Virus record (IMG/VR): IMGVR_UViG_3300036795_000069
Location: 1 to 51,570 of that record
Length of the DNA stretch: 51,570 nt
Direction: 5' to 3' (one strand)
Source of the DNA: a virus
Lineage: Duplodnaviria > Caudoviricetes
Shown here: positions 29,484-42,894 of the stretch, one piece after another
How the letters are laid out: the number at the start of each line of letters is the position of its first letter
Numbering within the stretch: the first letter of the stretch is position 1
The notes under the pieces: model-generated
The model's input: only the letters and a program-made list of their open reading frames with translations
Told to the model about the DNA's origin: nothing
The model's database searches: none
Translations under genes and position numbers: made by a program

Positions 29484-30008
29484 TTAGGGGCGGAGAGCCT
29501 CGAGGATCCTCCGTCGCCAATCCGTGTTGAACCGTAGTAAGTAGTTGACCAGATGGGCAGAAGCATCCATCGCGTGAGGCCATCCAGGAAAGTACAACCC
29601 TAACTTCTTTAGCACGTCTGCTGTCACTGGGTTGCCCTTATCCTTACCGCCCTGATGAGCCGTCTGAAACACAACGGGTCTACCAGTTTGCTGCTGCCAC
29701 AACTTGACGATGCCGATGTACTCCACAGAGTCCAGAACCAGTCCTGGTCGGCTCTTGTTCCTGTATTCGAACGATTCGCAAACAACGGTGAAGTCTTGAT
29801 CCGTCTCTTGTAGTTGCAGCAGGTCGTACAGATCCTCGTGATGGGCGCCATCGAGCTGACCACAACACCACAGGGCGCCTAAGACAGCACGGGAGTTAGG
29901 ATCTCCCATGACGAGCTTACCGGAGAGGTCAACACCGATTGGCTGGGGATTGCTTGCCATGGTAGCCCAGCCAGTTGTACCGCCTGGGTCTAACGACAGG
30001 ATCTTCAC
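29484..30008 (-). CDS. RuvC-like Holliday junction resolvase
   Basis: ILSLDPGGTTGWA, VVCESF and HAMDA motifs. Confidence 0.8.
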   Translation of the reverse strand: MKILSLDPGGTTGWATMASNPQPIGVDLSGKLVMGDPNSRAVLGALWCCGQLDGAHHEDLYDLLQLQETDQDFTVVCESFEYRNKSRPGLVLDSVEYIGIVKLWQQQTGRPVVFQTAHQGGKDKGNPVTADVLKKLGLYFPGWPHAMDASAHLVNYLLRFNTDWRRRILEALRP

Positions 30009-30325
30009 GCCATGTCTCCCCAGGTAAAGAACTGCACTGTCCTACCTAGCACCTGAGCCAGAATGATGTCGAGGTTATCAATGGCGATCTCGACGTTTCT
30101 ACCTGAACCGCGGCCTCTACCTTTCCACTCGTCAAAGGTAAACACTTGGTGGTAGTCCAGAACTGAATCTGGTCCACAACGAAGACGATCGGCTTCCGAC
30201 TGGTCAATGGTTAGCAGGATACGAGTCCAGCCAGGATAGGCTTTGGTCTTCTTACCTTCCTTGACCCACTCGACCGCGGCAGTAGTCTTACCTGATCTAC
30301 GGCCTTGCTGAATGATTGTGGTCAC
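30005..30325 (-). CDS. Mini P-loop protein, paralog A
   Basis: GRRSGKT Walker A and IAIDNLD; 106 aa. Confidence 0.8.
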   Translation of the reverse strand: MTTIIQQGRRSGKTTAAVEWVKEGKKTKAYPGWTRILLTIDQSEADRLRCGPDSVLDYHQVFTFDEWKGRGRGSGRNVEIAIDNLDIILAQVLGRTVQFFTWGDMA

Positions 30326-30615
30326 GACTGCAACCTATCCACTCGGTACTGACGGATATGAGCTAGAGCGGCAGCTGCAGCGTCGTTAGGCATGCCCATC
30401 TCCTTCATGAGCCAGTCACAGAGACCTGCATCGTGCTCTGCAGCTTCGGCAGCTTCCAGAAAGGCAATGGCTGTCTCCCGAGCTGTACCAGGAGTCATCT
30501 GGGTAGCCTTCTCATCCCAACGCAAGATGACGAATGGCTTTCCGTCGAAGAGGCTAACGCCTGCTTCTAACTGGAAGGCCTTATTCTCAATCGGTTCAGG
30601 CTTCCTCTTAGCCAT
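30322..30615 (-). CDS. Hypothetical protein
   Basis: GGAGG RBS; AEAAEHDA motif; overlaps both neighbours. Confidence 0.75.
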   Translation of the reverse strand: MAKRKPEPIENKAFQLEAGVSLFDGKPFVILRWDEKATQMTPGTARETAIAFLEAAEAAEHDAGLCDWLMKEMGMPNDAAAAALAHIRQYRVDRLQS

Positions 30616-30929
30616 CACATGCCTCCCCAAGTGATTAGGTCGACTGGAGCGCCTACCATCTGGAACAAAATGATGTCCAGGTTGTCGATAGCGATTGCCG
30701 GGCAGGCCCTGCCTCGCCTGGCGCGCTGCCACTCCTCGATATAGAATACCTGTCGGTAGTCCAAAGGCGCAGTCGGACCATTACGCAGTCGATTTGCCTC
30801 TTCCATACTGAGCACCAGCAGGATTCGAGACCAACCAGGATATCCTGGCACCCTCTTTCCAGCCTTGACCCATTCTATGGCCTTGGTGGTTTTACCCCAC
30901 CCACGACCTTGATTGATGAACTCTGGCAT
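30615..30929 (-). CDS. Mini P-loop protein, paralog B
   Basis: GRGWGKT Walker A and IAIDNLD; 104 aa. Confidence 0.8.
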   Translation of the reverse strand: MPEFINQGRGWGKTTKAIEWVKAGKRVPGYPGWSRILLVLSMEEANRLRNGPTAPLDYRQVFYIEEWQRARRGRACPAIAIDNLDIILFQMVGAPVDLITWGGM

Positions 30930-31240: not shown

Positions 31241-31549
31241 TTAGAGCTCACCAAACTTCTTTAAGCAGTGTGACAGCTTTGTGTCTCCACGTGTCACTTT
31301 AGTTGGCGGCATACTCTCACGAATGACTGTAAGCCAAAGGCTTATAGCCTTAGCTCCGTAGAGGCGCCATGTATATCGGTAAGGTGCTGCTGGCGGTGGC
31401 TTGTATACTGCACCACCCCATAGAGTGACGAGTTCTCTAAGAGGTTCGACGTTACTCTTAAATGCCTCTAGTGCAAACGTTCTACCGTCGCCGCAGCGGC
31501 AGAACGATCCGTGCTTCTCGAAGAAGTCTAGTGCCTCTTCAGTGGTCAT
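31241..31549 (-). CDS. Degenerate LAGLIDADG-like protein
   Basis: ALDFFEKHGSF (cf. LAGFFDGEGSF), WGG.V and Y.WRL.G..A motifs. Confidence 0.55.
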   Translation of the reverse strand: MTTEEALDFFEKHGSFCRCGDGRTFALEAFKSNVEPLRELVTLWGGAVYKPPPAAPYRYTWRLYGAKAISLWLTVIRESMPPTKVTRGDTKLSHCLKKFGEL

Positions 31550-31863
31550 TTTGGAATATCCAGCTCCTTGTTAATCTCGTCCAGTTCTGCCTGGAGCTCG
31601 TCGATGCGGGCTTCGATGACAGCCTTACGGCGCCTTAGCGATCCCGTCTTCTTAGGTACCACGACCAGATTGTGGGCAGAGAGGTCTGTTCGGGCTCCCT
31701 TGAATCTAACCATCTCGTCAGTCGCAAGTGGACGATGGAGGAGTTCCTCTTCCGCCACAATGTGATGCGTGAGCCTCCAGCCTCGGTCTTCGGTACGTGT
31801 GTAGTGATATCCGTTGGGTGAGATGCGGGTACTACCAACGGTTGCCTTCTGACCTCTTGCCAT
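31546..31863 (-). CDS. Degenerate HNH-like protein with a C-terminal coiled coil
   Basis: NGY..., HHIVAE..L.RPL...E.VRFK...D...NL; the catalytic His is absent. Confidence 0.65.
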   Translation of the reverse strand: MARGQKATVGSTRISPNGYHYTRTEDRGWRLTHHIVAEEELLHRPLATDEMVRFKGARTDLSAHNLVVVPKKTGSLRRRKAVIEARIDELQAELDEINKELDIPK

Positions 31864-32020
31864 GCCTCCTCCTCTCTCGGCTTAGTCTTAGGACGTCTTC
31901 TAGGGTCACGCGCTTGGTCTGCTGCGAGTCCGTATCGGAAGTCGCACCATTCGTCTGCGTTCCATCTTGGTCCTGTGATTCTTGTTGGTCGCCAGTCCAT
32001 GTTACTCTCCTCGGCGTCAC
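31832..32020 (-). CDS. Hypothetical protein
   Basis: TAGTG overlap with the polymerase stop. Confidence 0.4.
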   Translation of the reverse strand: MTPRRVTWTGDQQESQDQDGTQTNGATSDTDSQQTKRVTLEDVLRLSRERRRHGKRSEGNRW

Positions 32021-34401
32021 TAAACCTCACCCCAGCTCGCGCCGACCTTGCAGTCGACCTGGAATCTAACGTAGTCGCCAACTACAGCCTTGCCATGCTT
32101 CAGCATGACTTCGCTCATCACGGCAGTCACTTCGTCGGCATCGGCGGCATCACACTCGGCGAGGATAGAGTCGTGAACGATATTACGGAGGAAAGCCATT
32201 CCTCGAAGTCGTACGCGAAGTTCAGCCGCCGCCCCAAGGCAAATGTCGCTGGATGTAGACTGAGGCAGAAAAGCCAGGGCCTCTTTAAGTACATCGTCCT
32301 TATTGTCGTTGGTAATGAGCCAGAAGCGACGGCGTCGTCCGAAAGGAGTAACAAGATCTTCGCCCTGCAGAACACGCCGTTGAACATCCTGACGCCAGGC
32401 CACAATGCCTGGAATAACGTCAAAGAATCGTCGCATTCCATCTCGTGCTTCTCGTTCGGAGATCTTGAACTCTTGGGCAATGCTGAAGGCTTCACGACCG
32501 TAAGCGAGTCCGTATACATAAGCCTTGACTCGGATACGTAGCTCCTTCTTAGCAGCTGCATCCACGTCTCCGACGTTGGGATAGAGTACGGGTGTGAGCT
32601 CATTGAAGAGGTCTCGCGTCGGGTCATTGAAGATCTCCCGGAAGTACTCATCCTGAGCTAGGTAGCAGGCTATTCGAAGTTCAGCCTGACTGTAGTCAGG
32701 TTGGACGAAGACTCGTCCAGGTTTCGTAGGAATGAAAAGCTTTCGGATGACAGACTCTCGAGGAACGTTCTGGAGATTCGGATTTCGACAACTAAGTCGT
32801 CCTGTTGTAGTTCCGTGGACCAGGAATGTGGGGTGAACTCGACCCATGTAGAGCCGCTTTCGTGTTCCCTTGATGTATGTCCCGTAGAGCTTTGCTTCGC
32901 GTCGGTGTCGTAGTAGGATCTCACAGAAGCGGAAGAGGGCGGTGTCCATCTCACCACGTCGTGCCTTGACGTCACAGATCTCCTGGAGAACATCCTTGGC
33001 AGTAGACTCAACTTGGACTCCTAGCTCCGCCAATGCCTTCTTGACCTGAATGGGCGATCGGGGGTTGATCGGCCCCTTAGCAGGGTCGGAATACTGAAGG
33101 CTGAGTTCTTCCTCGATGTCGTCGATCCTCTTGAGGTAGGTCTCAGTCATCTCGTTCAGGAGCGGGATATCGACCTTGAGGCCATTAAGTTCCATGAACA
33201 TAAGTTGATTGGCAGCTCCAACAAGAAAGTCATGGAGCCACCGAAGATTGCGTCCCTCCGGAAGATACCATTGGGTAGGCGCAGGCTCATCTTCGAGTCG
33301 CTGACGAAAGATATGGTAAAGAGCCATCGTACATACAACGTCGTATGCGTTGTATTTGTACAGTACAGGTCGTGGCACGTTGGCATAGCTTTCACCCCCA
33401 CGAACGTAACGTCCAAGCTCGTCGTCATACTGAGGCGCTCCCAGGATCTCGACGGACATTTGCTTGAGGCCGTGAATGCCAGGACGCTCGTCGAGGACGT
33501 AGCTGGCGATCATGGTGTCGAAGAATGCTTCCAGGCTGCCCATGAGTGGGAAGAGGCCAGCCAAGTCGAACTTGAGGTTCTGTCCGATCAGCTTAGCCTT
33601 GACGAACAGTTCCCTCAGGGCTTCGATTACCACCTGCGATTTGCAGGCCTCTTCACCGAATACCACGGCCTTGCCCTGTGCATAGCAAACCCCGATACAC
33701 AGCATCTGGTACTTGTTCGGGTGGTCGAAGGAGGTGTCCTTCTCAATACCAACCTCAATATCCACCACCAGTTCCGGAAATGGTCTAAGTTCACCGCATG
33801 CCTGCATCGCTGACACTTCATCGTCGACGACTACGAACTTGGGCTCTTCCCACTTGTTGTTCGGGTCGAACTTGACCTTCCCGATATCCGTGACGAGATG
33901 CGGAAACATGTCTGCTGCACGAAGGCACGCGGCTGGATGTATGGTAGGGATGACGCGAACTCCAGGGAGCGTGCTTGTCGACTTCCCGGGCCCGACACGA
34001 AGTTTCGTGATGCCAGTGCGAGTTTGCAGAATCGTTTGTGCGGCTGCATTACCGAGAGCGACCACTGTCTCCACGTGTCGTCCCTGTAGATCGCCACGTA
34101 GCCGACCCACACAAGCTCGGAACGCTTCAGCAGGAGGCGTACTCCCATCTGGTGGTCGACAGAGTGCTGCATTGGTAAGGAGCGTATCTCCACGTCGAAT
34201 CCCATGATGCTGGAGTACGGAATCCAGGAGTTTCCCACTGGCACCGATGAACGGTTTGCCATATCTTGCTTCCTGCGCACCTGGCGCCTCCCCTACGAAA
34301 GCGATCTTGGCTTCGGCAGGTCCATCTGAGGGGACGAACTTACCAGCCTCTTGAAGAGGGCAATGATCACAGTCAGCACCCTCTGCCTTGATGATGCCCA
34401 C
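32020..34401 (-). CDS. polA: Family A DNA polymerase with an N-terminal family-4 uracil-DNA glycosylase domain and 3'-5' exonuclease
   Basis: UDG: CDHCPL, GEAPG, TNAALCRPP, HPAA. Exo: DIE, NLKFD, YNAYD. Pol: DYSQAELR, KAYVYGLAYG, VHDS. Confidence 0.95.
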   Translation of the reverse strand: MGIIKAEGADCDHCPLQEAGKFVPSDGPAEAKIAFVGEAPGAQEARYGKPFIGASGKLLDSVLQHHGIRRGDTLLTNAALCRPPDGSTPPAEAFRACVGRLRGDLQGRHVETVVALGNAAAQTILQTRTGITKLRVGPGKSTSTLPGVRVIPTIHPAACLRAADMFPHLVTDIGKVKFDPNNKWEEPKFVVVDDEVSAMQACGELRPFPELVVDIEVGIEKDTSFDHPNKYQMLCIGVCYAQGKAVVFGEEACKSQVVIEALRELFVKAKLIGQNLKFDLAGLFPLMGSLEAFFDTMIASYVLDERPGIHGLKQMSVEILGAPQYDDELGRYVRGGESYANVPRPVLYKYNAYDVVCTMALYHIFRQRLEDEPAPTQWYLPEGRNLRWLHDFLVGAANQLMFMELNGLKVDIPLLNEMTETYLKRIDDIEEELSLQYSDPAKGPINPRSPIQVKKALAELGVQVESTAKDVLQEICDVKARRGEMDTALFRFCEILLRHRREAKLYGTYIKGTRKRLYMGRVHPTFLVHGTTTGRLSCRNPNLQNVPRESVIRKLFIPTKPGRVFVQPDYSQAELRIACYLAQDEYFREIFNDPTRDLFNELTPVLYPNVGDVDAAAKKELRIRVKAYVYGLAYGREAFSIAQEFKISEREARDGMRRFFDVIPGIVAWRQDVQRRVLQGEDLVTPFGRRRRFWLITNDNKDDVLKEALAFLPQSTSSDICLGAAAELRVRLRGMAFLRNIVHDSILAECDAADADEVTAVMSEVMLKHGKAVVGDYVRFQVDCKVGASWGEV

Positions 34402-35171
34402 TAGTCACCTACCAGCTCGAGGAGCTCCATGATGTTCCTCTCGACGAGCCCACGATCTATCGGGTGCATATCGAAGTAGTCATCAGTCCGTGTGAGGACA
34501 TGCTTGGACGTAGCTAGCGACTGACTGCACTTGGCATACACGTAAGGCAGCGAAGTGTCTATACTACGAACACCCTTGGCAAGGTCACGATTGTACATCT
34601 CTTCCCTGGCAAACTCAGACATGCCGAGGAAGTGAATGTGGAAGCGACCAGGGTAGGCTCTTTGGATGTGAGCTGCCAACATGTGCCTGACGAGAATGCT
34701 GCTACCGTGACCGTTACTAAGGGTCGTATGCATGTGCTTCGGGATACCAATCGTACGCACCCAACGCTTCTCGACTACGCCTCTGACGGTCTCAAAGAAC
34801 TCAGAGTAGTCCAAGCCTTGAGCAACTACCATGTATCGGAAGCCTGGCAAGATCTGCTCCTGGAACTCTTGTACCTTGTCCAGCGTGCCACGAACGCTTT
34901 GCATTACGTCAGGTACCACGATCTCGGTGGGCCTAAGCTCCCTGGCGATCTTGTTCAAGGCCTCCGTGCTCCACAGAGTACCTTCGAAGGCACCGTTGTC
35001 CAAGATGACAAGGTCGCCTCGACGTACTGTTTCTGCGTACGTGTTGCGGTAGGTTACACTTCTGTCCCATAGACTGGGTAGCACAAGCTGAGTGCGAGTA
35101 TCCAACACGTCGCCGATGTGGCTGAGTGGTGGAATAAGGGCGATGTCAGTCACTGATGAAACCTGCTTCAT
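34401..35171 (-). CDS. dpdA: Divergent TGT/DpdA-fold 7-deazaguanine transglycosylase
   Basis: TGT-like motifs in order: ILDNGAF, VPD, VAQG, IGIP, HFLG, SIDTS; linked to queCDE/folE. Confidence 0.7.
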   Translation of the reverse strand: MKQVSSVTDIALIPPLSHIGDVLDTRTQLVLPSLWDRSVTYRNTYAETVRRGDLVILDNGAFEGTLWSTEALNKIARELRPTEIVVPDVMQSVRGTLDKVQEFQEQILPGFRYMVVAQGLDYSEFFETVRGVVEKRWVRTIGIPKHMHTTLSNGHGSSILVRHMLAAHIQRAYPGRFHIHFLGMSEFAREEMYNRDLAKGVRSIDTSLPYVYAKCSQSLATSKHVLTRTDDYFDMHPIDRGLVERNIMELLELVGD

Positions 35172-35367
35172 GACTCACGTTGAAGGTGGTTTCGTCCATC
35201 GAGTCGACGAGCTCCATCTCAGCGACCTCGCCGTTGTCGTATTGCTCCTGCATGAAGGTTGCAACTTGCTCCTCGGTCTTGCAACCGGGGAAGACACTCT
35301 GATCGATCTCCCCGCCCGGAAGACGAGGTGGCTCGAACGTGCCTTGAAGAGTGATACGAATTGCCAT
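35146..35367 (-). CDS. Small acidic hypothetical protein
   Basis: TAATG overlap with the upstream gene. Confidence 0.6.
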   Translation of the reverse strand: MAIRITLQGTFEPPRLPGGEIDQSVFPGCKTEEQVATFMQEQYDNGEVAEMELVDSMDETTFNVSHEAGFISD

Positions 35368-35723
35368 TACTTGCCCCACATCTCTCGTAGTGGCTTGAAC
35401 TCGTCAACAGGCATCTGGCCAGTGCTGACTTCTTCACCAGCGTCGCCAATGACATACTGCTGAATGAACCAGAGCTTGATGAAGGTGTATCGGGCGTAGT
35501 TGGCCAGATCGACAACCTCCTCCATTGCCATCCGAAGAGTGTCGGTCTGCAAGAAGCCTGTCGCGCCATACTGCTCGGCGCCAGCCTCATGTCTTCCTCG
35601 ACACCACTCGTCAAAGGCGTCGCTAGCCTGTTGGAGTGTCTCCGGCGACGCCGTTTTGTACGGGGACGTCGAGTTGGGGCTTGACTCCGAATCGCCGGAT
35701 GTTCTCGGCTCGTTTGACTGCAT
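35367..35723 (-). CDS. MazG-superfamily (all-alpha NTP-PPase)-like protein
   Basis: RHEAGAEQYG...AMEEVVDLANY motif. Confidence 0.65.
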   Translation of the reverse strand: MQSNEPRTSGDSESSPNSTSPYKTASPETLQQASDAFDEWCRGRHEAGAEQYGATGFLQTDTLRMAMEEVVDLANYARYTFIKLWFIQQYVIGDAGEEVSTGQMPVDEFKPLREMWGK

Positions 35724-36021
35724 ATGCTTGCTCCAGGTCGATGTTGAGTAGTGCGGCAGTGTTCAACAGGTAGATGTAGACGTCGGTGACCTCCATGGCA
35801 ACGTCGAAGCGAACCTTCGCGTCCTTGAAGCTAAGAGAGCCCCGTTCGATCTTCTTGACCAGATTGGCAAGCTCTCCTACTTCCCCTGCAAGGCTCAGGA
35901 CATGGTGCGGAAGACTAGGCGCAACGTCAGGAAACCAACGCTTGCTGTCTTCCATGCATTGGATGGACAGCTTCGCCGTTGTGCTGGGCTCGCGTCCTTT
36001 TCCATTGCTGCTTTCATTCAT
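35623..36021 (-). CDS. mazG: MazG-like nucleotide pyrophosphohydrolase
   Basis: LAGEVGELANLVKK...EVTDVYIYLL; start uncertain because the ATG overlaps a -10 box. Confidence 0.85.
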   Translation of the reverse strand: MNESSNGKGREPSTTAKLSIQCMEDSKRWFPDVAPSLPHHVLSLAGEVGELANLVKKIERGSLSFKDAKVRFDVAMEVTDVYIYLLNTAALLNIDLEQAYAVKRAENIRRFGVKPQLDVPVQNGVAGDTPTG

Positions 36022-36049
36022 TATATCATACCGCCCTATGGAATCTCAA
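36020..36049 (-). promoter_or_regulatory. SigA-like promoter internal to the modification cluster
   Basis: GGTC-TTGAGA-N18-(TGA)TATAAT. Confidence 0.75.
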
Positions 36050-36053
36050 GACC

Positions 36054-36197
36054 CTATTCGGGGTCAACTTCGATGATGATGATGTACGCACGTTTGTCGC
36101 GTGCCCATTTGGTGGTGATCTTGGCGTTCTGCTTGTCGAACTCCTCATCGTCACCAGATGGGAATTCCAGTATCACACCGGAGAGTTCAACGTTCAC
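36054..36197 (-). CDS. 47-aa hypothetical protein
   Basis: GTGA overlap with the folE stop. Confidence 0.5.
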   Translation of the reverse strand: MNVELSGVILEFPSGDDEEFDKQNAKITTKWARDKRAYIIIIEVDPE

Positions 36198-37099
36198 GGC
36201 AGCATCGACATGAACTCGGCCTTCGCCGTCCGGTTGTGATCCGCGAACACTCCCCTCATGCAGCTCGTCGTGGTCAGCGCTCCCGGCATTCCCACACCGC
36301 GCATCGCCATACATAGGTGCTCACCCTTCATGACGACAGCGATACCTCTGGGAGCCAACTTCTCCTCGAGGAAGTCGGCAATGGCAACCGTGAGGTTCTC
36401 CTGCACCCACAGTCCCTTGCTGATGTTCTTCACTGCGCGGGCGAACTTGCTCAGGCCCGCAATGCGTCTTTCAGGTACATAGGCGACGTGCGCCATACCG
36501 AAGAACGGAACTACGTGGTGGTTGCACAGAGCGTAGAACGGCATGTCCTGAACGACAACCATCTCGTCGATGTGTTCGGTATTCTCGAACGTAGTGAACT
36601 TGTACTCTTCGGGTGTCGTCATCTCACGAAGCATCGTGGCGAATCGCTTAGGCGTATCCTGCCCGTGCTCAGAGTTCACATCTAGCCCTGTGGTGTTATG
36701 CAGTAGGGCCCGCGCGAGGTCTATATCGCTGTCTGACAACACGAGTCGTGGGTGAGTGCCTCGCCCCATTTCCTTCAGGTCTACCTCTCGCTGCATGGCT
36801 GGCGTCAGAGGGTTGTTGTACCAGTGAGGTCCCTGTTCGCCTACAGTTGGATATGTGTTCTTGACATAGCTGAGGCCTGCCTTGGTGTTCTCCTCCTCTT
36901 TACTGTCGAACAAGTCCTCGAACTCCTCGGCGTTGTTCTCGTCAGTAATGCTAGTATGAGGAGGCTGACAACCATCACCGACGTAGTGTGTAGCGTCTCT
37001 GACTGGTGCATTGTTCACACGATCGACAACGTCTTTGTTCTTGTCGAACCACTCGTCAACAGGCATCCCCACAGGCTTCTCGGGGTTCTGTCCGGGCAT
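36194..37099 (-). CDS. folE: GTP cyclohydrolase I with an N-terminal extension
   Basis: TPKRF, CNHHVVPFFG, GLSKFAR, VQENLT and HLCMAMRGV motifs. Confidence 0.95.
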   Translation of the reverse strand: MPGQNPEKPVGMPVDEWFDKNKDVVDRVNNAPVRDATHYVGDGCQPPHTSITDENNAEEFEDLFDSKEEENTKAGLSYVKNTYPTVGEQGPHWYNNPLTPAMQREVDLKEMGRGTHPRLVLSDSDIDLARALLHNTTGLDVNSEHGQDTPKRFATMLREMTTPEEYKFTTFENTEHIDEMVVVQDMPFYALCNHHVVPFFGMAHVAYVPERRIAGLSKFARAVKNISKGLWVQENLTVAIADFLEEKLAPRGIAVVMKGEHLCMAMRGVGMPGALTTTSCMRGVFADHNRTAKAEFMSMLP

Positions 37100-37100
37100 A

Positions 37101-37784
37101 TCAGATTCCTCTCTGCGTACGATCCCAGATGTAGTTGTGTACCTGAACATTCATCTTCCAAGGCATGCCTGACTTGACAAGCCACTCGGCGAGGACCTTC
37201 TCCTCCATCTTACCCCAGACCACGCCGACATAGGTGTCGATGTTGTTATACCGTGCAATGTACTTATCGTACAGTACCTCAGCCAGTTCTAGGTCGTCTT
37301 CATTTGCAACGACGAACTTGATGGCATGACGTCCAGAGGACTTACCCAACATGTCGACATTGTGATACCGCATCTCGTTGCTGCAGTCCTCGCCGCTGGA
37401 TGGGAGCTTCCAGTCCATGCAGAAGGTGATACGGTTCACAGCCCACTCAGGGTAGGCAAGAGTGCCGTTGGAGAAGCACTCGATGTTCTTGTCGTTCCAG
37501 AGCAAGTTGGTCAGCATCTCCAGCTCGCGTGTCGACTGGAGGAATGGCTCGCCACCTGTGAAGCAGACGTTGTTCACCTGGAATGTCTGAATCTCGTCAT
37601 GAAGCTCTGCCACCGTGACCTTGCGCCATTCGTTTCGATAGATTTTCGGGTCGACAGCATAAGGGGTATCACAAGGCCAGCCAGGGCAACGCAGGTTACA
37701 GCCACCAAACCGAACGAATAAAGTAGGCGAGCCCACATTGAGGCCCTCTCCTTGTATCGAAGGGTAGAGCTCGGATAGACGCAT
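37101..37784 (-). CDS. queE: 7-carboxy-7-deazaguanine synthase (radical SAM)
   Basis: SIQGEG, FVRFGGCNLRCPGWPCDT, TGGEP and QVH motifs. Confidence 0.95.
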   Translation of the reverse strand: MRLSELYPSIQGEGLNVGSPTLFVRFGGCNLRCPGWPCDTPYAVDPKIYRNEWRKVTVAELHDEIQTFQVNNVCFTGGEPFLQSTRELEMLTNLLWNDKNIECFSNGTLAYPEWAVNRITFCMDWKLPSSGEDCSNEMRYHNVDMLGKSSGRHAIKFVVANEDDLELAEVLYDKYIARYNNIDTYVGVVWGKMEEKVLAEWLVKSGMPWKMNVQVHNYIWDRTQRGI

Positions 37785-37786
37785 AT

Positions 37787-37897
37787 CTATTCCTTCCACT
37801 TCTTCACCACAACGGAAACGCCCGCGGCGAGTACGAACAACACCACAGCAAGGATAAGGATTTGAACGATCCAAGTCCCGAATTCTGACCAAGCCAT
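37787..37897 (-). CDS. 36-aa single-TM membrane peptide
   Basis: AGGAG RBS; MAWSEFGTWIVQILILAVVLFVLAAGVSVVVKKWKE. Confidence 0.65.
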   Translation of the reverse strand: MAWSEFGTWIVQILILAVVLFVLAAGVSVVVKKWKE

Positions 37898-37905
37898 TAT
37901 AGCTC

Positions 37906-38376
37906 CTAGTCGTGACTGAACGAGGCTCCGTTGACTCGTGTCTCATCGACCTCGATGGAGAGACCGTAGACGAGTGGGTTCTTGTTGAAGTTGTCCCACA
38001 TCTCGGCGTAGACCCACAAGGCGATGTTCTCGGTCGTAGGATCCTGAGGCCACACGCGAAGACCGGGAAGCTTGCCACCTTCCCAAGGCTTGCCCTGTAA
38101 GGTCTCCTGAGGCTTGGCGAACACGAGATAGTCAGCCCACGGATCTAGAGCATTGAGGTGTAGGTGATGATCCCACGTGTCGTCGAGGTAGCTACGGAAC
38201 GTCTTCTTGACCGAGTGGAAGTCGAGTCCACCGAGGATGCCCTGATCGTTGAGCACTCCGGAGATCGTCAACTTCACTTGCATGCCATGTCCGTGAATCT
38301 GCTGGCACTTACCTGGCAGGTTCATCAGGCGATGAGCGATCTCGATGTTGTGTCGAAGAATGATGCTACTGGGCAT
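37906..38376 (-). CDS. queD: 6-carboxytetrahydropterin synthase
   Basis: AHRL, KCQQIHGH, WDH..LN, PTTENIA and ET motifs. Confidence 0.93.
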   Translation of the reverse strand: MPSSIILRHNIEIAHRLMNLPGKCQQIHGHGMQVKLTISGVLNDQGILGGLDFHSVKKTFRSYLDDTWDHHLHLNALDPWADYLVFAKPQETLQGKPWEGGKLPGLRVWPQDPTTENIALWVYAEMWDNFNKNPLVYGLSIEVDETRVNGASFSHD

Positions 38377-39151
38377 TGACTGCGGTCCTCCAGTACTCGG
38401 GCGACTCATACTCGGTCGGATCTGCAACACCTGCGAGTGCGAATGCTTCGGCGCGTTCAACACATGTGCCGCATCGACCACAGTGGATAGCCGTCCCGTT
38501 GTAGCAGCTCCATGTGTTCTTGAACGGGACATTCAGCTCACGACCTTCCGAAACGATGTCGGCTTTGGTCCTATACAGGAAGGGTGTGTAGATAACGAAG
38601 TCAGGACGGATAAAGCCTTCGTTCGCCGTGATGAGCAGCTCTTGCAGGCGGTTCACGAAATCAGGACGACAGTCAGGGTAAACGAAGTGGTCACCAGCAT
38701 GAATGCCCAGAGCCAAGATGTTCGCCCCCTCGGATACCGCAAGACCCGCAGCGATATTCGACATGATAGCATTGCGATTAGGAACCACAGTTGCGGCCAT
38801 ATTGCTTGCTGCATAGTTCCCCTCCGGCACTTCGCGAGAGTGATCCGTGAGGACAGAGGCCTTCAAGAGGCTGGTGATGCTCGTGATGTCCACGATGGTG
38901 TGGGCAATGTTGAGGAGGTCGCACGTGAGTCGGGCGTACTTCAGTTCTTTCTTGTGTCGCTGTCCGTAGTCGAACGATACTGCGTGGACCTGCTTCGACG
39001 GGTCGATAATGCTGTCGTTGCTGAGCACGTCGTAGAGGAGGACAGTTGAGTCCAAGCCTCCCGACATAACGACAATGGCCTTCTGACTCTTGCGACGCTC
39101 CTCCAATGAAGGAAGACCTGCAGCAAGTTCAGCCTGGGTTGCCTGGGACAT
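38366..39151 (-). CDS. queC: 7-cyano-7-deazaguanine (preQ0) synthase
   Basis: SGGLDS, YGQRH, VPNRN, YPDCR and TWSCY..CGRCGTC; no GAT domain. Confidence 0.97.
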   Translation of the reverse strand: MSQATQAELAAGLPSLEERRKSQKAIVVMSGGLDSTVLLYDVLSNDSIIDPSKQVHAVSFDYGQRHKKELKYARLTCDLLNIAHTIVDITSITSLLKASVLTDHSREVPEGNYAASNMAATVVPNRNAIMSNIAAGLAVSEGANILALGIHAGDHFVYPDCRPDFVNRLQELLITANEGFIRPDFVIYTPFLYRTKADIVSEGRELNVPFKNTWSCYNGTAIHCGRCGTCVERAEAFALAGVADPTEYESPEYWRTAVNAQ

Positions 39152-41372
39152 GGATGCTCCTACTGAATAGTTGTTCGGTTCGGCCTGACTTCTGTCGGCT
39201 GATGAGTCCACGCTGCTCTAGTGTCAGGAAGACTTGATCTGCTTCCCGAGCCGAGAGGTGATAGGCTTGCATCAAGTACGATCGCTTGACACCGTTCTTG
39301 TTCCTGATGGCTCGGTAGATGGTGTCGAGTTGTTTCTCACCCGTCGACCTACCGAGGTTGTTCATGACATCGATCACGTAGGTGCGCCAGCCACGCATGT
39401 AGTAGATGGCATGAAGGATGTCTTGCATCTCGATGGTGATCTTCGAGTCACGTTGTCGAGATGTAGCCATGAGCAATGCTGCCTTCAGTGTCGACTTAGA
39501 GAGCCTGTCGAATGTAGGTGTCATGTGCTCAGGGTTCATACTACGCATCCCGAAGTCAAGCATGTCCGCTTCAAGCTTGTTGTAACGGTACCACGCATCG
39601 GGTGTCATTGTTGCGTTCCACTCACGTGGAGAGTTCTGTTCGATCTTCTGACCGGCAATAGTGATCGTTGCCTGTGTCTGGTAGTGAGCAACGAGGTCTT
39701 GCATCTCGTCCTTGATTGCCTTCTTATTGCCTAGGTTGATCTCTGTGGGAGGACCTAGTGGCTTGAGCTTGCTTACGTCTGACTCTGCCGTGATGAAGAT
39801 GAATCGGGGCATGAAGCCTGACGAGACTTGCTCCGACGTAAGAAGGTCTTGGATCTTGGTGCGAATACCACCCGCAAACACAATGAGACGAGGGTCGCGT
39901 ACTTCGATCGTCTCTTTCCGGAGGACCCGCTTCTGCATTTTGCCATCATACAGTTTGGTGAGGAGTTCTGGCATGCCAGCGTAATAGTCCCGCTTGGTGA
40001 TCTGTTCAAGCAGTCCGGAGAACTCATCACGCAGGAAGACAGAAGGTCGTCCAGGACGCGTTGATAGGCCGCCCAGAAGTCCTTCGATGCTGCCGTCAGT
40101 GGCGAGAACGATGTCATCATCAACCTCCATAATGAGGTCCATCGCGATGTCCATAGCTGTAGTCTTCCTGGTCAACGTTGTATCGGCCAGGATCATGAAC
40201 CACAGGTTTGGGTACACAGTTCCGAATGATGTAGGTAGGCGAACGTTGCCACAGAGAAGAGAGGCCAGGATCGTGAAAGCTCCCGCCTGATGGTACTGCT
40301 TCGCTGCGTCGCCCAGCCCGCCTGCCCACTCTATGTACCTTTCTATGAACGTCGGATTGTCCTCTACGTACTGAATTTCCTCATCGGTAAGAAGAGGGAC
40401 AGCTGAGGCAGCCATTGCTTCTGGAATGGCTACACCACTATGCAATTCGTTGATGTCAAACGCCTTACAGACGTCACGCCAGAGGAACATCTTGTCTCTA
40501 CCATCACGTCTGTACTTGTTACACTTCGCCACGTCCGCTACGACGTATACCTCTTCACGTTTCATACCTGCTTCAAAGAGGCCTAGCAACATGCCCCAGA
40601 GCTTCTTCGACCAGTCTTCATCGGGCTGAGGCTCAATCTGAAAGGCGTTCCAGGTGATAGGATGTAACCTGTTGCGCCTCAGAGCCAGCAGTTCGTCGGC
40701 ATCCATCGTCGGAAGTTCTTCCGGGAATGGGATGTCCATGTACTTGAATGCCTGGATCTGCGGGTAGACGTCAAAGTCGGTAAGTCTGAACCTTGATCGA
40801 TTGACCGTGATCATATGAACTTCAGCCGGTGAGGTCTGACCCATCACCTTGCCGTACTTATGATTGTACGTTCCAGGTACACGAAGCAGCTGGGATAGAT
40901 CCCAACCACTTCGATCAGCACCATCCTGCACATGCTTGTAGGCAATGCGTCTGCTAACGTCTTCAGCCATCTCAGGATCAATGGCTGCCTCGAAGCACCA
41001 GAACGCCTGGAATCTATTAGGCGACGACTCAACGACGATGGAAGGGTTTACGTCTAGCTGTTCTGGTTGACACTCGTCGAGATCCGCCCAAGCGTTAGCA
41101 CATGCGAACACAAAGTCCTTTGTTCGCTTCTTCCCCTTAAGAAGCTGCGGACAAAAATAAACGTCTTCAGTAATGTACCAGCGATTCACGAAGGCGATCA
41201 TGTCATCTTCTTGATCTGGCCACTTGAAGAATTCTTCCTGGAACTGGTTGTCTTCCTTGTTGATGCTACGGAGTATCCGCGCTAGGCAGACGATCCCTTC
41301 GGTTGTTCCGAAGACGGACCTGAAGAAGACACGTCGGACTTCATTCGTCTGAGGAGAGACCACCACTGACAA
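39129..41372 (-). CDS. RepB-type primase fused to a helicase-like ATPase (DUF3987-like)
   Basis: WADLD, ESSPNRFQAFW, LLRVPGT.N.K; C-terminal RKTT and DEFSG..L.KLYDG. Confidence 0.85.
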   Translation of the reverse strand: MSVVVSPQTNEVRRVFFRSVFGTTEGIVCLARILRSINKEDNQFQEEFFKWPDQEDDMIAFVNRWYITEDVYFCPQLLKGKKRTKDFVFACANAWADLDECQPEQLDVNPSIVVESSPNRFQAFWCFEAAIDPEMAEDVSRRIAYKHVQDGADRSGWDLSQLLRVPGTYNHKYGKVMGQTSPAEVHMITVNRSRFRLTDFDVYPQIQAFKYMDIPFPEELPTMDADELLALRRNRLHPITWNAFQIEPQPDEDWSKKLWGMLLGLFEAGMKREEVYVVADVAKCNKYRRDGRDKMFLWRDVCKAFDINELHSGVAIPEAMAASAVPLLTDEEIQYVEDNPTFIERYIEWAGGLGDAAKQYHQAGAFTILASLLCGNVRLPTSFGTVYPNLWFMILADTTLTRKTTAMDIAMDLIMEVDDDIVLATDGSIEGLLGGLSTRPGRPSVFLRDEFSGLLEQITKRDYYAGMPELLTKLYDGKMQKRVLRKETIEVRDPRLIVFAGGIRTKIQDLLTSEQVSSGFMPRFIFITAESDVSKLKPLGPPTEINLGNKKAIKDEMQDLVAHYQTQATITIAGQKIEQNSPREWNATMTPDAWYRYNKLEADMLDFGMRSMNPEHMTPTFDRLSKSTLKAALLMATSRQRDSKITIEMQDILHAIYYMRGWRTYVIDVMNNLGRSTGEKQLDTIYRAIRNKNGVKRSYLMQAYHLSAREADQVFLTLEQRGLISRQKSGRTEQLFSRSIHVPGNPG

Positions 41373-42790: not shown

Positions 42791-42801
42791 CTAAATGGTT
42801 G

Positions 42802-42894
42802 TGGACTCACCCGGAGTCGAACCGGGATCTCTACACGCTGCAAGCTGGGGGTCTAGCTGGCTGTGTAGGCTCTTCCTATCTGAGCTATGAGTCC
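42802..42894 (-). ncRNA. tRNA-like RNA with an expanded 26-nt anticodon loop
   Basis: Acceptor GGACTCA/TGAGTCC; D-arm GCTC-AGATAGGAA-GAGC; stem TACAC/GTGTA; T-arm CCCGG-TTCGACT-CCGGG. Confidence 0.8.

Follow-up and report, generated by a model that had tools for sequence, protein, structure and literature searches.

Deazaguanine genes in the replication module of an uncultured phage

We analyzed a 51,570-bp stretch of viral DNA, the complete IMG/VR virus record IMGVR_UViG_3300036795_000069 (hereafter the window), in which 7-deazaguanine biosynthesis genes and a putative DNA-guanine transglycosylase lie between a primase and a DNA polymerase. The window carries an exact terminal direct repeat of 127 bp, and its PHROG matches are those of a tailed phage (large terminase, portal, head protease, major head protein, tape measure, minor tail proteins, endolysin). 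At 51.6 kb, the phage is siphovirus-like, complete and uncultured. Its replication module runs leftward from ~45 kb to 29.5 kb and comprises an exonuclease, a Sak4-like annealing protein, a single-stranded DNA-binding protein (SSB), the primase, the deazaguanine cluster, a family-A DNA polymerase (PolA) and a RuvC-like gene; the last label is provisional, its sole match being phrog_1981, a family with no assigned function. All cluster genes lie on the minus strand, bounded upstream by the primase (Table 1). A whole-window search found no near-identical DNA in the phage collection, and the nearest cultured PolA proteins, from Arthrobacter and Brevundimonas phages, are at most 32% identical.

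Table 1. Features of the cluster and of related phages; positions refer to the window unless a contig handle (L) is given. ORF, open reading frame; UDG, uracil-DNA glycosylase; NTP, nucleoside triphosphate.
Feature	Position	Strand	Evidence or remark
Primase (RepB-primase N-domain + DUF3987)	39129..41372	-	PHROG 10514 DNA primase 2.7e-98; Pfam DUF3987, RepB_primase
queC, preQ0 (7-cyano-7-deazaguanine) synthase	38366..39151; long ORF to 39211	-	Pfam QueC 2.5e-59
queD, 6-carboxytetrahydropterin synthase	37906..38376 (likely start); long ORF to 38532	-	Pfam PTPS 2.2e-20; PHROG QueD-like 1e-26
queE, radical-SAM 7-carboxy-7-deazaguanine synthase	37101..37784 (likely start); long ORF to 38078	-	PHROG QueE-like 2e-36
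folE, GTP cyclohydrolase I	36194..37099 (likely start); long ORF to 37150	-	Pfam GTP_cyclohydroI 4.2e-53, residues 152-316 of the long ORF
MazA, predicted MazG-type all-alpha NTP pyrophosphohydrolase	35623..36021	-	PHROG 229 MazG-like 7.5e-8
MazB, 118-aa protein of an unannotated viral family	35367..35723	-	Homologues in IMG/VR loci; no named family
73-aa ORF	35146..35367	-	Missed by the first-pass annotation; ATG overlaps MazB stop, stop overlaps GTG start of DpdA3 gene
DpdA3-subfamily transglycosylase homologue	34401..35171	-	256 aa from ATG; 250 aa from GTG at 35153 (as database copy P0001)
Family-4 UDG + 3'-5' exonuclease + family-A DNA polymerase	32020..34401	-	Pfam UDG 4.6e-25, DNA_pol_A_exo1 1.8e-13, DNA_pol_A 2.4e-59
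Unannotated DpdA3 in deazaguanine cluster, BSP7	L086 6902-7690
Unannotated DpdA3 in deazaguanine cluster, Weizmannia phage Youna2	L085 6995-7765
Unannotated DpdA3 in deazaguanine cluster, Chryseobacterium phage MA9V-3	L084 6998-7792

Four adjacent genes had been read in a first-pass annotation as queC, queD, queE and folE, and Pfam, PHROG and NCBIfam bear out both their identities and their positions. Curated NCBIfam cut-offs are passed by QueC (TIGR00364: 185.3 bits, cut-off 150.3) and FolE (NF006826: 181.3 bits, cut-off 162); QueD (TIGR03367, 6.2e-18) and QueE (3.8e-39 and 2.9e-36 against the NCBIfam QueE models) stay below theirs, yet their PHROG and Pfam matches are strong, and QueE additionally matches Fer4_12 (3.2e-6). 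The family match opens near residue 44 of the long queC ORF, so that 39151 is the likely start; the corresponding matches open at residue 59 of the long queD ORF and at residue 99 of the long queE ORF. The most plausible folE start lies one base past the queE stop. In this otherwise tightly packed operon, queD and queE are separated by a gap of 121 nt (37785-37905). As Rfam yielded no match there, or anywhere in the window at E up to 0.1, the gap holds no recognizable preQ1 riboswitch. FolE carries an N-terminal extension of ~135 aa (36650-37099, minus strand) ahead of its GTP cyclohydrolase I domain, and this extension matches no family in Pfam or NCBIfam.

The pathway is expected to end at preQ0, as the first-pass annotation had proposed from the apparent lack of QueF and Gat-QueC. 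The window QueC reaches its equivalog cut-off and aligns with only positions 227-473 of the 476-position Gat-QueC PHROG, that is with the C-terminal QueC half, and thus has no glutamine-amidotransferase domain. Across 33 further ORFs, Pfam recognized just three families, with no QueF, amidotransferase or other nucleotide-metabolism family among them. FolE does match QueF-II weakly (1.1e-5), but we do not take this for a QueF because the two share T-fold similarity. Together with the transglycosylase homologue described below, the pathway genes support the earlier reading of the locus as a 7-deazaguanine DNA-modification cluster.

A DpdA3 homologue, a polymerase fusion and two small genes

The 256-aa protein indeed contains the LDNGAF, VAQG, HFLG and SIDTS motifs that had been quoted for it (L57-D58-N59-G60-A61-F62, V116-A-Q-G119, H180-F-L-G183 and S203-I-D-T-S207), and across 45 homologues D58, N59, G60, Q118, G119, H180, G183 and D205 vary little or not at all. 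A tblastn search of 50,697 phage records with this protein returned 13 records, the best matches coming from the Cellulophaga phages phiST, phi13:1 and phi19:2 (26.4% identity, 99% coverage, 4e-12). The phiST gene is CGPG_00065, its locus tag having been confirmed, which Hutinet et al. 2023 named DpdA3 and linked by HHpred to PF01702 at 98.83% (PMC10516641). A profile termed A1, built solely from the window protein and its metagenomic homologues, recovers proteins of Youna2 (132.6 bits), BSP7 (129.4), MA9V-3 (123.8), phiST (104.2) and Campylobacter phage CP220 (CPT_0056, 74.9); CPT_0056 was found by a further profile, A6, at 1.2e-27. The subfamily comparison covered 10 DpdA1-group proteins. 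Profile A1 matched 0 of these 10, even with --max and E up to 1000, and in the reverse search a DpdA1 profile did not match the window protein. By homology, then, the protein is a member of the published DpdA3 subfamily. The first-pass annotation had called it a divergent DpdA-fold enzyme: it is of the DpdA type, as its kinship to CGPG_00065 indicates, but not a new kind, the subfamily having been described in 2023 (PMC10516641).

We compared the protein with structural models and solved structures. Its AlphaFold2 model (pLDDT 93.5, pTM 0.91) consists of eight alternating strand-helix units. The invariant residues D58, E83/D88, Q118/G119, P144, H180/G183 and D205 are found inside strands or at their C-terminal ends (strands 54-57, 83-85, 112-116, 138-144, 178-182 and 203-206), a placement that resembles a TIM-barrel active site. 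Among solved structures, the family profile matches the bacterial DNA-guanine transglycosylase 7ui4 best, at a weak E of 0.016, over an alignment that spans the H-x-L-G and S-x-D motifs. Among its ESM Atlas neighbors is one cluster in which 17% of the members carry PF23859 DpdA. On this modeling, a tRNA-guanine transglycosylase (TGT) fold is very likely. The family is large, with 1704 cluster representatives at E <=0.001. We found no fused forms among proteins of 516-2000 aa; in the ESM Atlas, a 455-aa viral cluster, 93% of whose members carry AAA_28, aligns structurally to all of DpdA3 (TM 0.77), which suggests an AAA_28-DpdA3 fusion. The isoelectric point, taken as a stand-in for DNA binding, does not separate the two subfamilies, with medians of 5.7-5.9 for DpdA3 homologues and a range of 5.3-8.1 for DpdA1 proteins, and a diverse DpdA3 alignment gave no usable pattern. 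The genome holds no second TGT or DpdA gene, as judged by a six-frame search with the Pfam TGT and DpdA models at E up to 10.

The DpdA3 gene is joined to a polymerase gene, as had been noted before. Its TAG stop overlaps the GTG start of the polymerase by 1 nt (TAGTG), with AGGTGA upstream, and the UDG, exonuclease and DNA_pol_A domains of the fusion are all found. The N-terminal 190 aa match the Thermotoga maritima UDG TM0511 (1vk2, 2.1e-26; 1l9g, 1.7e-26) and other type-4 UDGs, and the alignment with 1l9g superimposes GEAPG on GEGPG and aligns the H-P motif. Fusions of UDG and PolA are known from several phage PolA groups (PMC13697223).

Between folE and the DpdA3 gene, the first-pass annotation had placed two MazG-superfamily genes, and our analysis retains one of them. 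In MazA, the residues E47, E50, E77, D80, K56, K57 and R60 are invariant in 39 aligned sequences, the four acidic ones forming the EXXE...EXXD pattern. Its profile matches 2q73 (5.5e-13), dCTP pyrophosphatase 1 (RS21-C6; 7.5e-12) and, over 40 positions, MazZ (7ody; 0.0031), whereas the single sequence stays below the Pfam MazG threshold (0.012, 16.3 bits against 22). Judged by these motifs and profile matches, MazA is a genuine MazG-type pyrophosphatase, closest to the group of RS21-C6 and dCTP pyrophosphatase 1, and it is also linked by hhalign to the MazG-like phiST protein CGPG_00068 (90.6%).

MazB, in contrast, shows neither the motif pattern nor the homology expected of a MazG protein, and that assignment is not confirmed. 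It has a single acidic motif (E69, D72), and none of 46 family members gave a credible Pfam match. None of 125 homologues is named, the only one with a precomputed Pfam family being P0264 (PF24623), and the ESM Atlas holds no annotation for a MazB homologue. No hhalign link was found between MazB and MazA (4.7%), nor any link to phiST CGPG_00066 or CGPG_00068 or to a PF18909 protein found beside another DpdA3 gene (contig L080). Its best PDB match is 2p06 at E 0.69, which we take to be an all-alpha NTP-pyrophosphatase-like protein and which at this E value is a lead only. The AlphaFold2 model is a two-helix hairpin (27-52 and 62-95; core pLDDT >90, pTM 0.48), a model with which the formation of a bundle by oligomerization would be compatible. 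Within the family, G48, Y52, G53, N75 and Y76 never vary, and R44, E69 and D72 hardly do.

The ORFs of MazA and MazB share 101 nt (35623-35723), read in different frames, and MazB has no alternative downstream in-frame start. When the first start codon is taken, long overlaps occur in most of 44 related loci with both genes. The frame offset is mostly +1 and sometimes +2, so that a programmed frameshift is not indicated. The 73-aa ORF between MazB and DpdA3 has no family match and was found by tblastn in 0 of 81 loci; it is not conserved.

Conservation of the module and its relatives

An IMG/VR scan returned 80 loci, many of them on contigs ~50-55 kb long and many shortened by contig ends. Their common gene order is Exo, Sak4, SSB, Primase, QueC, QueD, QueE, FolE, MazA, MazB, DpdA3, PolA and RuvC-like, and because this order recurs across the 80 loci, the grouping reflects more than chance. 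PolA is present in 77 of them, FolE in 74, QueE in 62, QueC in 61 and QueD in 51. MazA occurs in 54 loci and MazB in 61 (either in 71, both in 44, neither in 9), and in 71 of the 80 one or the other lies between folE and dpdA3. In 66 of the 77 PolA-bearing loci, PolA either overlaps DpdA3 or follows it by no more than 200 nt, and its UDG part is present in 73. Among 185,579 species genomes there is a single DpdA3 relative (L083, 3343-4074), on a contig of a metagenome-assembled genome labeled Pedobacter; as this contig is only 17.6 kb long, it is probably a phage contig binned with that genome. Downstream of PolA lies a 105-aa HNH-endonuclease-like gene (31546-31863, minus strand; PHROG 1891, 2e-5) that is found in 54 of 81 loci, and further on two paralogous ORFs of ~105 aa (30005-30325 and 30615-30929, minus strand), which are 55% identical and share an N-terminal G-x3-GKTT motif. 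These two match nothing in Pfam or PHROG and are present in 12 and 8 of 81 loci, respectively. ARAGORN places a tRNA-like element, whose two-base anticodon is undefined, at 42801-42894 (minus strand), where Rfam gives no match.

We compared the cluster with DpdA3 systems of known phages. The window, phiST and CP220 have a homologous transglycosylase in common. Like the window, phiST has FolE, QueD and QueE upstream of DpdA3 and a homologous MazG-like gene in the cluster, and its cluster also lies beside polymerase genes, as described in PMC10516641; phiST is the sole measured DpdA3 phage whose cluster we compared. The two differ in that the window has QueC, lacks DpdL (CGPG_00067 in phiST) and a P-loop kinase-like gene where phiST has CGPG_00066, and adds the MazB family, at a DpdA3 identity of 26%; QueF and DpdN were not found in the window. 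This gene content is why preQ0, rather than 7-deazaguanine (DG), 7-amido-7-deazaguanine (ADG) or fpreQ1, is expected as the base. The layout of the window recurs in the Bacillus phages BSP7, BSTP5/8/10/12 and BSP19 and the Weizmannia phage Youna2, in which primase, QueC, QueD, QueE, FolE, small genes, DpdA3 and an overlapping PolA follow one another. BSP7 and Youna2 have the top DpdA3 profile scores among cultured phages (129-133 bits) but differ from the window in having a P-loop kinase-like gene, not MazA or MazB, ahead of DpdA3. In the cultured Bacillus and Weizmannia phages this DpdA3 gene is annotated as hypothetical or misnamed. We predict that the DNA of BSP7, Youna2 and MA9V-3 is heavily guanine-modified; no report of DNA modification in the BSP7, BSTP or Youna2 phages came to light, no literature search having been aimed at them.

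Phage 9g of the Queuovirinae, whose record we compared as the DpdA1 example, likewise has a deazaguanine pathway beside its polymerase and a replication module with Sak4, SSB, exonuclease and primase, but a clamp gene lies between dpdA and the polymerase, and its 317-aa DpdA1 escapes the DpdA3 profile. Modification in the DpdA1 systems of 9g and CAjan is partial, reaching up to ~30% of guanines (PMC10516641, PMC6884629). The bacterial DpdA of 7ui4 has 436 aa as against 250-256 aa in the window, in which no DpdB-type gene was identified; bacterial DpdA works with the ATPase DpdB. The hydroxymethylcytosine pathway of phage T4 draws on three activities: NTP pyrophosphatase, nucleotide modification and kinase. 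It and the 2-aminoadenine (dZ) system of PurZ, MazZ, DatZ and DpoZ resemble the window by functional analogy only, in that an NTP pyrophosphatase stands beside a base-modifying enzyme and a phage polymerase. From the dZ system the window also differs in having no detected HD triphosphohydrolase or kinase (none of the 10 cluster proteins and 33 further ORFs matches an HD family, so that no DatZ-like enzyme was found) and in the weakness of the match between MazA and MazZ.

The genes next to DpdA3 change from lineage to lineage. In phiST, the P-loop AAA_18 protein CGPG_00066 (9.4e-7) is encoded directly upstream; MA9V-3 has a homologue of it (AAA_18, 1.5e-7; 32% identity), as do contigs L105-L108. 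BSP7, Youna2, L079 and L078 have in common another P-loop family, which matches dNK and thymidylate kinase weakly. None of the genes that precede DpdA3 in BSP7, Youna2 and MA9V-3 resembles MazA. Directly upstream of DpdA3, L080 has a PF18909 dATP/dGTP diphosphohydrolase (1.4e-21) and L060 has ThyX. Our sampling of such neighborhoods yielded 4 loci with the phiST query and 0 with the BSP7 query. Since the P-loop neighbors are mostly not homologous to each other, they suggest repeated recruitment of the same kind of partner. In CP220 (L111, 7043-9536), the DpdA3 gene CPT_0056 lies in a tail-gene region, with an HD+AAA_33 kinase protein on one side and an AAA_28 protein on the other. CPT_0056 itself matches DUF6610 weakly, a family equated with DpdA4 in PMC10516641. 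For the CP220 protein CPT_0055, the best match is to Pnkp1, an end-healing enzyme, in its kinase domain (9.2e-7). The main text of PMC10516641 does not contain the words kinase or ATPase, and its supplementary lists may hold such genes or Bacillus phages.

Possible routes of base insertion

We favor, with moderate confidence and largely by analogy with characterized systems, the reading that the module modifies phage DNA by base exchange on the DNA itself. FolE, QueD, QueE and QueC would turn GTP into the free base preQ0, and DpdA3, probably a small TIM-barrel relative of TGT and DNA-guanine transglycosylases with both acidic motifs, would swap guanine for it. Progeny DNA would then carry dPreQ0, the deoxynucleoside of this base, and would be shielded from restriction. 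Substitution is expected to be very high or complete, by analogy with the three measured DpdA3 lineages. By default, the exchange would take place on DNA after, or just behind, replication, this being the only activity shown for any DpdA, and the MazG-type enzyme would be an accessory acting on the nucleotide pool. Post-replicative insertion is the published position for all DpdA families, and bDpdA, DpdA1 and DpdA2 act on DNA (PMC10516641). The same source reports complete guanine replacement in all tested DpdA3 phages as against at most ~30% in other subfamilies. Our literature search found no paper that proposes or tests a nucleotide-level DpdA3.

Several observations weigh against this reading. 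Action on DNA has so far been shown for no DpdA3, and the activity has never been reconstituted, attempts in E. coli having been unsuccessful (PMC10516641). Exchange on DNA also leaves the MazG-type gene of the operon without an obvious job. The window protein matches neither Pfam TGT (PF01702) nor DpdA (PF23859) at E up to 10, nor any other Pfam, NCBIfam or named PHROG family. In hhalign it scores 1.1% against the 9g DpdA and 2.5% against the 10-sequence DpdA1 alignment, with motifs that are colinear at a score that is not significant. TGT carries a Cys3-His zinc subdomain that contacts nucleic acid. The window protein has one cysteine, and no cysteine is invariant among its homologues, so that it lacks a TGT-like cysteine-rich zinc site. 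As to the base, QueC also makes ADG as an intermediate, and dADG may therefore be the final form.

A tentative alternative, to which we give less credence than to exchange on DNA, is that the base is exchanged before replication, on the plan of the T4 hydroxymethylcytosine pathway. MazA would hydrolyze dGTP to dGMP, thereby excluding guanine and supplying substrate; DpdA3 would swap the base on dGMP or deoxyguanosine; kinases, from the host here and phage-encoded in other lineages, would raise the dPreQ0 nucleotide to the triphosphate; and the phage PolA would polymerize it. The first-pass annotation had argued for such a route from the coupling to PolA. We find this coupling uninformative as to the route, because in phage 9g, with its DpdA1 and partial modification, dpdA also adjoins clamp and polymerase genes. 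The neighbor genes make a better argument, and one that is real though indirect: in several lineages DpdA3 adjoins NTP pyrophosphatases or small P-loop kinase-like genes. To this pattern belong MazA or MazB in 71 of the 80 loci, the MazG-like CGPG_00068 and AAA_18 protein CGPG_00066 of phiST with its MA9V-3 homologue, the P-loop family of BSP7, Youna2, L079 and L078, the PF18909 enzyme of L080, the HD+AAA_33 and AAA_28 proteins that flank DpdA3 in CP220, and the 455-aa AAA_28 cluster of the ESM Atlas. Published observations point the same way, namely the complete replacement, the free ADG nucleoside in CP220-infected cells and the failed reconstitution in E. coli (PMC10516641), and a route through modified dGTP has been floated for Campylobacter phages (PMC6884629).

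Several points count against insertion at the nucleotide level. Among the 33 further ORFs of this complete genome, Pfam finds neither a kinase nor an HD enzyme nor any other family of nucleotide metabolism, and the clade likewise encodes no kinase. MazB is no demonstrable pyrophosphatase, and MazA is nearer to dCTP pyrophosphatase 1 than to MazZ, a comparison from which its specificity cannot be read. Because phage replication modules often contain MazG and kinase genes, their adjacency may be incidental, and the P-loop neighbors could be ATPases that drive exchange on DNA, in the manner of DpdB with bacterial DpdA. The match of CPT_0055 to Pnkp1 points to polynucleotide rather than nucleotide chemistry. 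To our knowledge, no TGT-superfamily enzyme acts on free nucleotides.

An improbable variant would place the exchange at the fork itself: DpdA3, made in a fixed ratio with PolA through the 1-nt overlap, would ride the replisome and swap guanines in nascent DNA. The stop/start overlap and the position of DpdA3 directly upstream of PolA in 66 of 77 loci are in line with it, as is the shared arrangement, with overlapping genes, in BSP7 and Youna2. Yet DpdA1 is similarly placed in 9g, with a clamp gene in between, and modification there is partial, and in CP220 the DpdA3 gene does not adjoin a polymerase gene. That phage DNA is not modified at all, and that the cluster instead boosts queuosine or other tRNA modification or folate-type metabolism of the host, is very improbable: FolE, QueD, QueE and QueC do also serve bacterial tRNA queuosine synthesis, but the transglycosylase belongs to DpdA3, a type associated with phage DNA, rather than to the TGTs, it sits in a replication module, and every tested phage with the DpdA3 family has modified DNA (PMC10516641).

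The window cluster is thus a further DpdA3 deazaguanine cluster, of a system type described in 2023, in a large uncultured phage clade. Exchange on DNA remains the reading we favor for it. We consider it possible, if doubtful, that DpdA3 enzymes in general are not DNA transglycosylases but exchange guanine for a 7-deazaguanine on the free deoxynucleoside or deoxynucleotide. If so, a MazG- or HD-type enzyme would destroy dGTP and thereby provide the substrate, and the triphosphate would be rebuilt by P-loop kinases, which phiST, BSP7 and CP220 would encode themselves and for which host enzymes would stand in here. This would amount to a T4-like pre-replicative purine pathway with a TGT fold at its core, and would account for 100% substitution being seen only in DpdA3 phages. 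Because DpdA3 is repeatedly joined to NTP pyrophosphatases or P-loop kinase-like genes, the choice between exchange on DNA and on nucleotides is directly testable in the cultured Bacillus and Weizmannia phages. With the module shared by at least 80 IMG/VR contigs and with 1704 DpdA3-like representatives, heavily guanine-modified DNA may be common in environmental viromes, which would bear on restriction, on CRISPR targeting and on sequencing chemistry.

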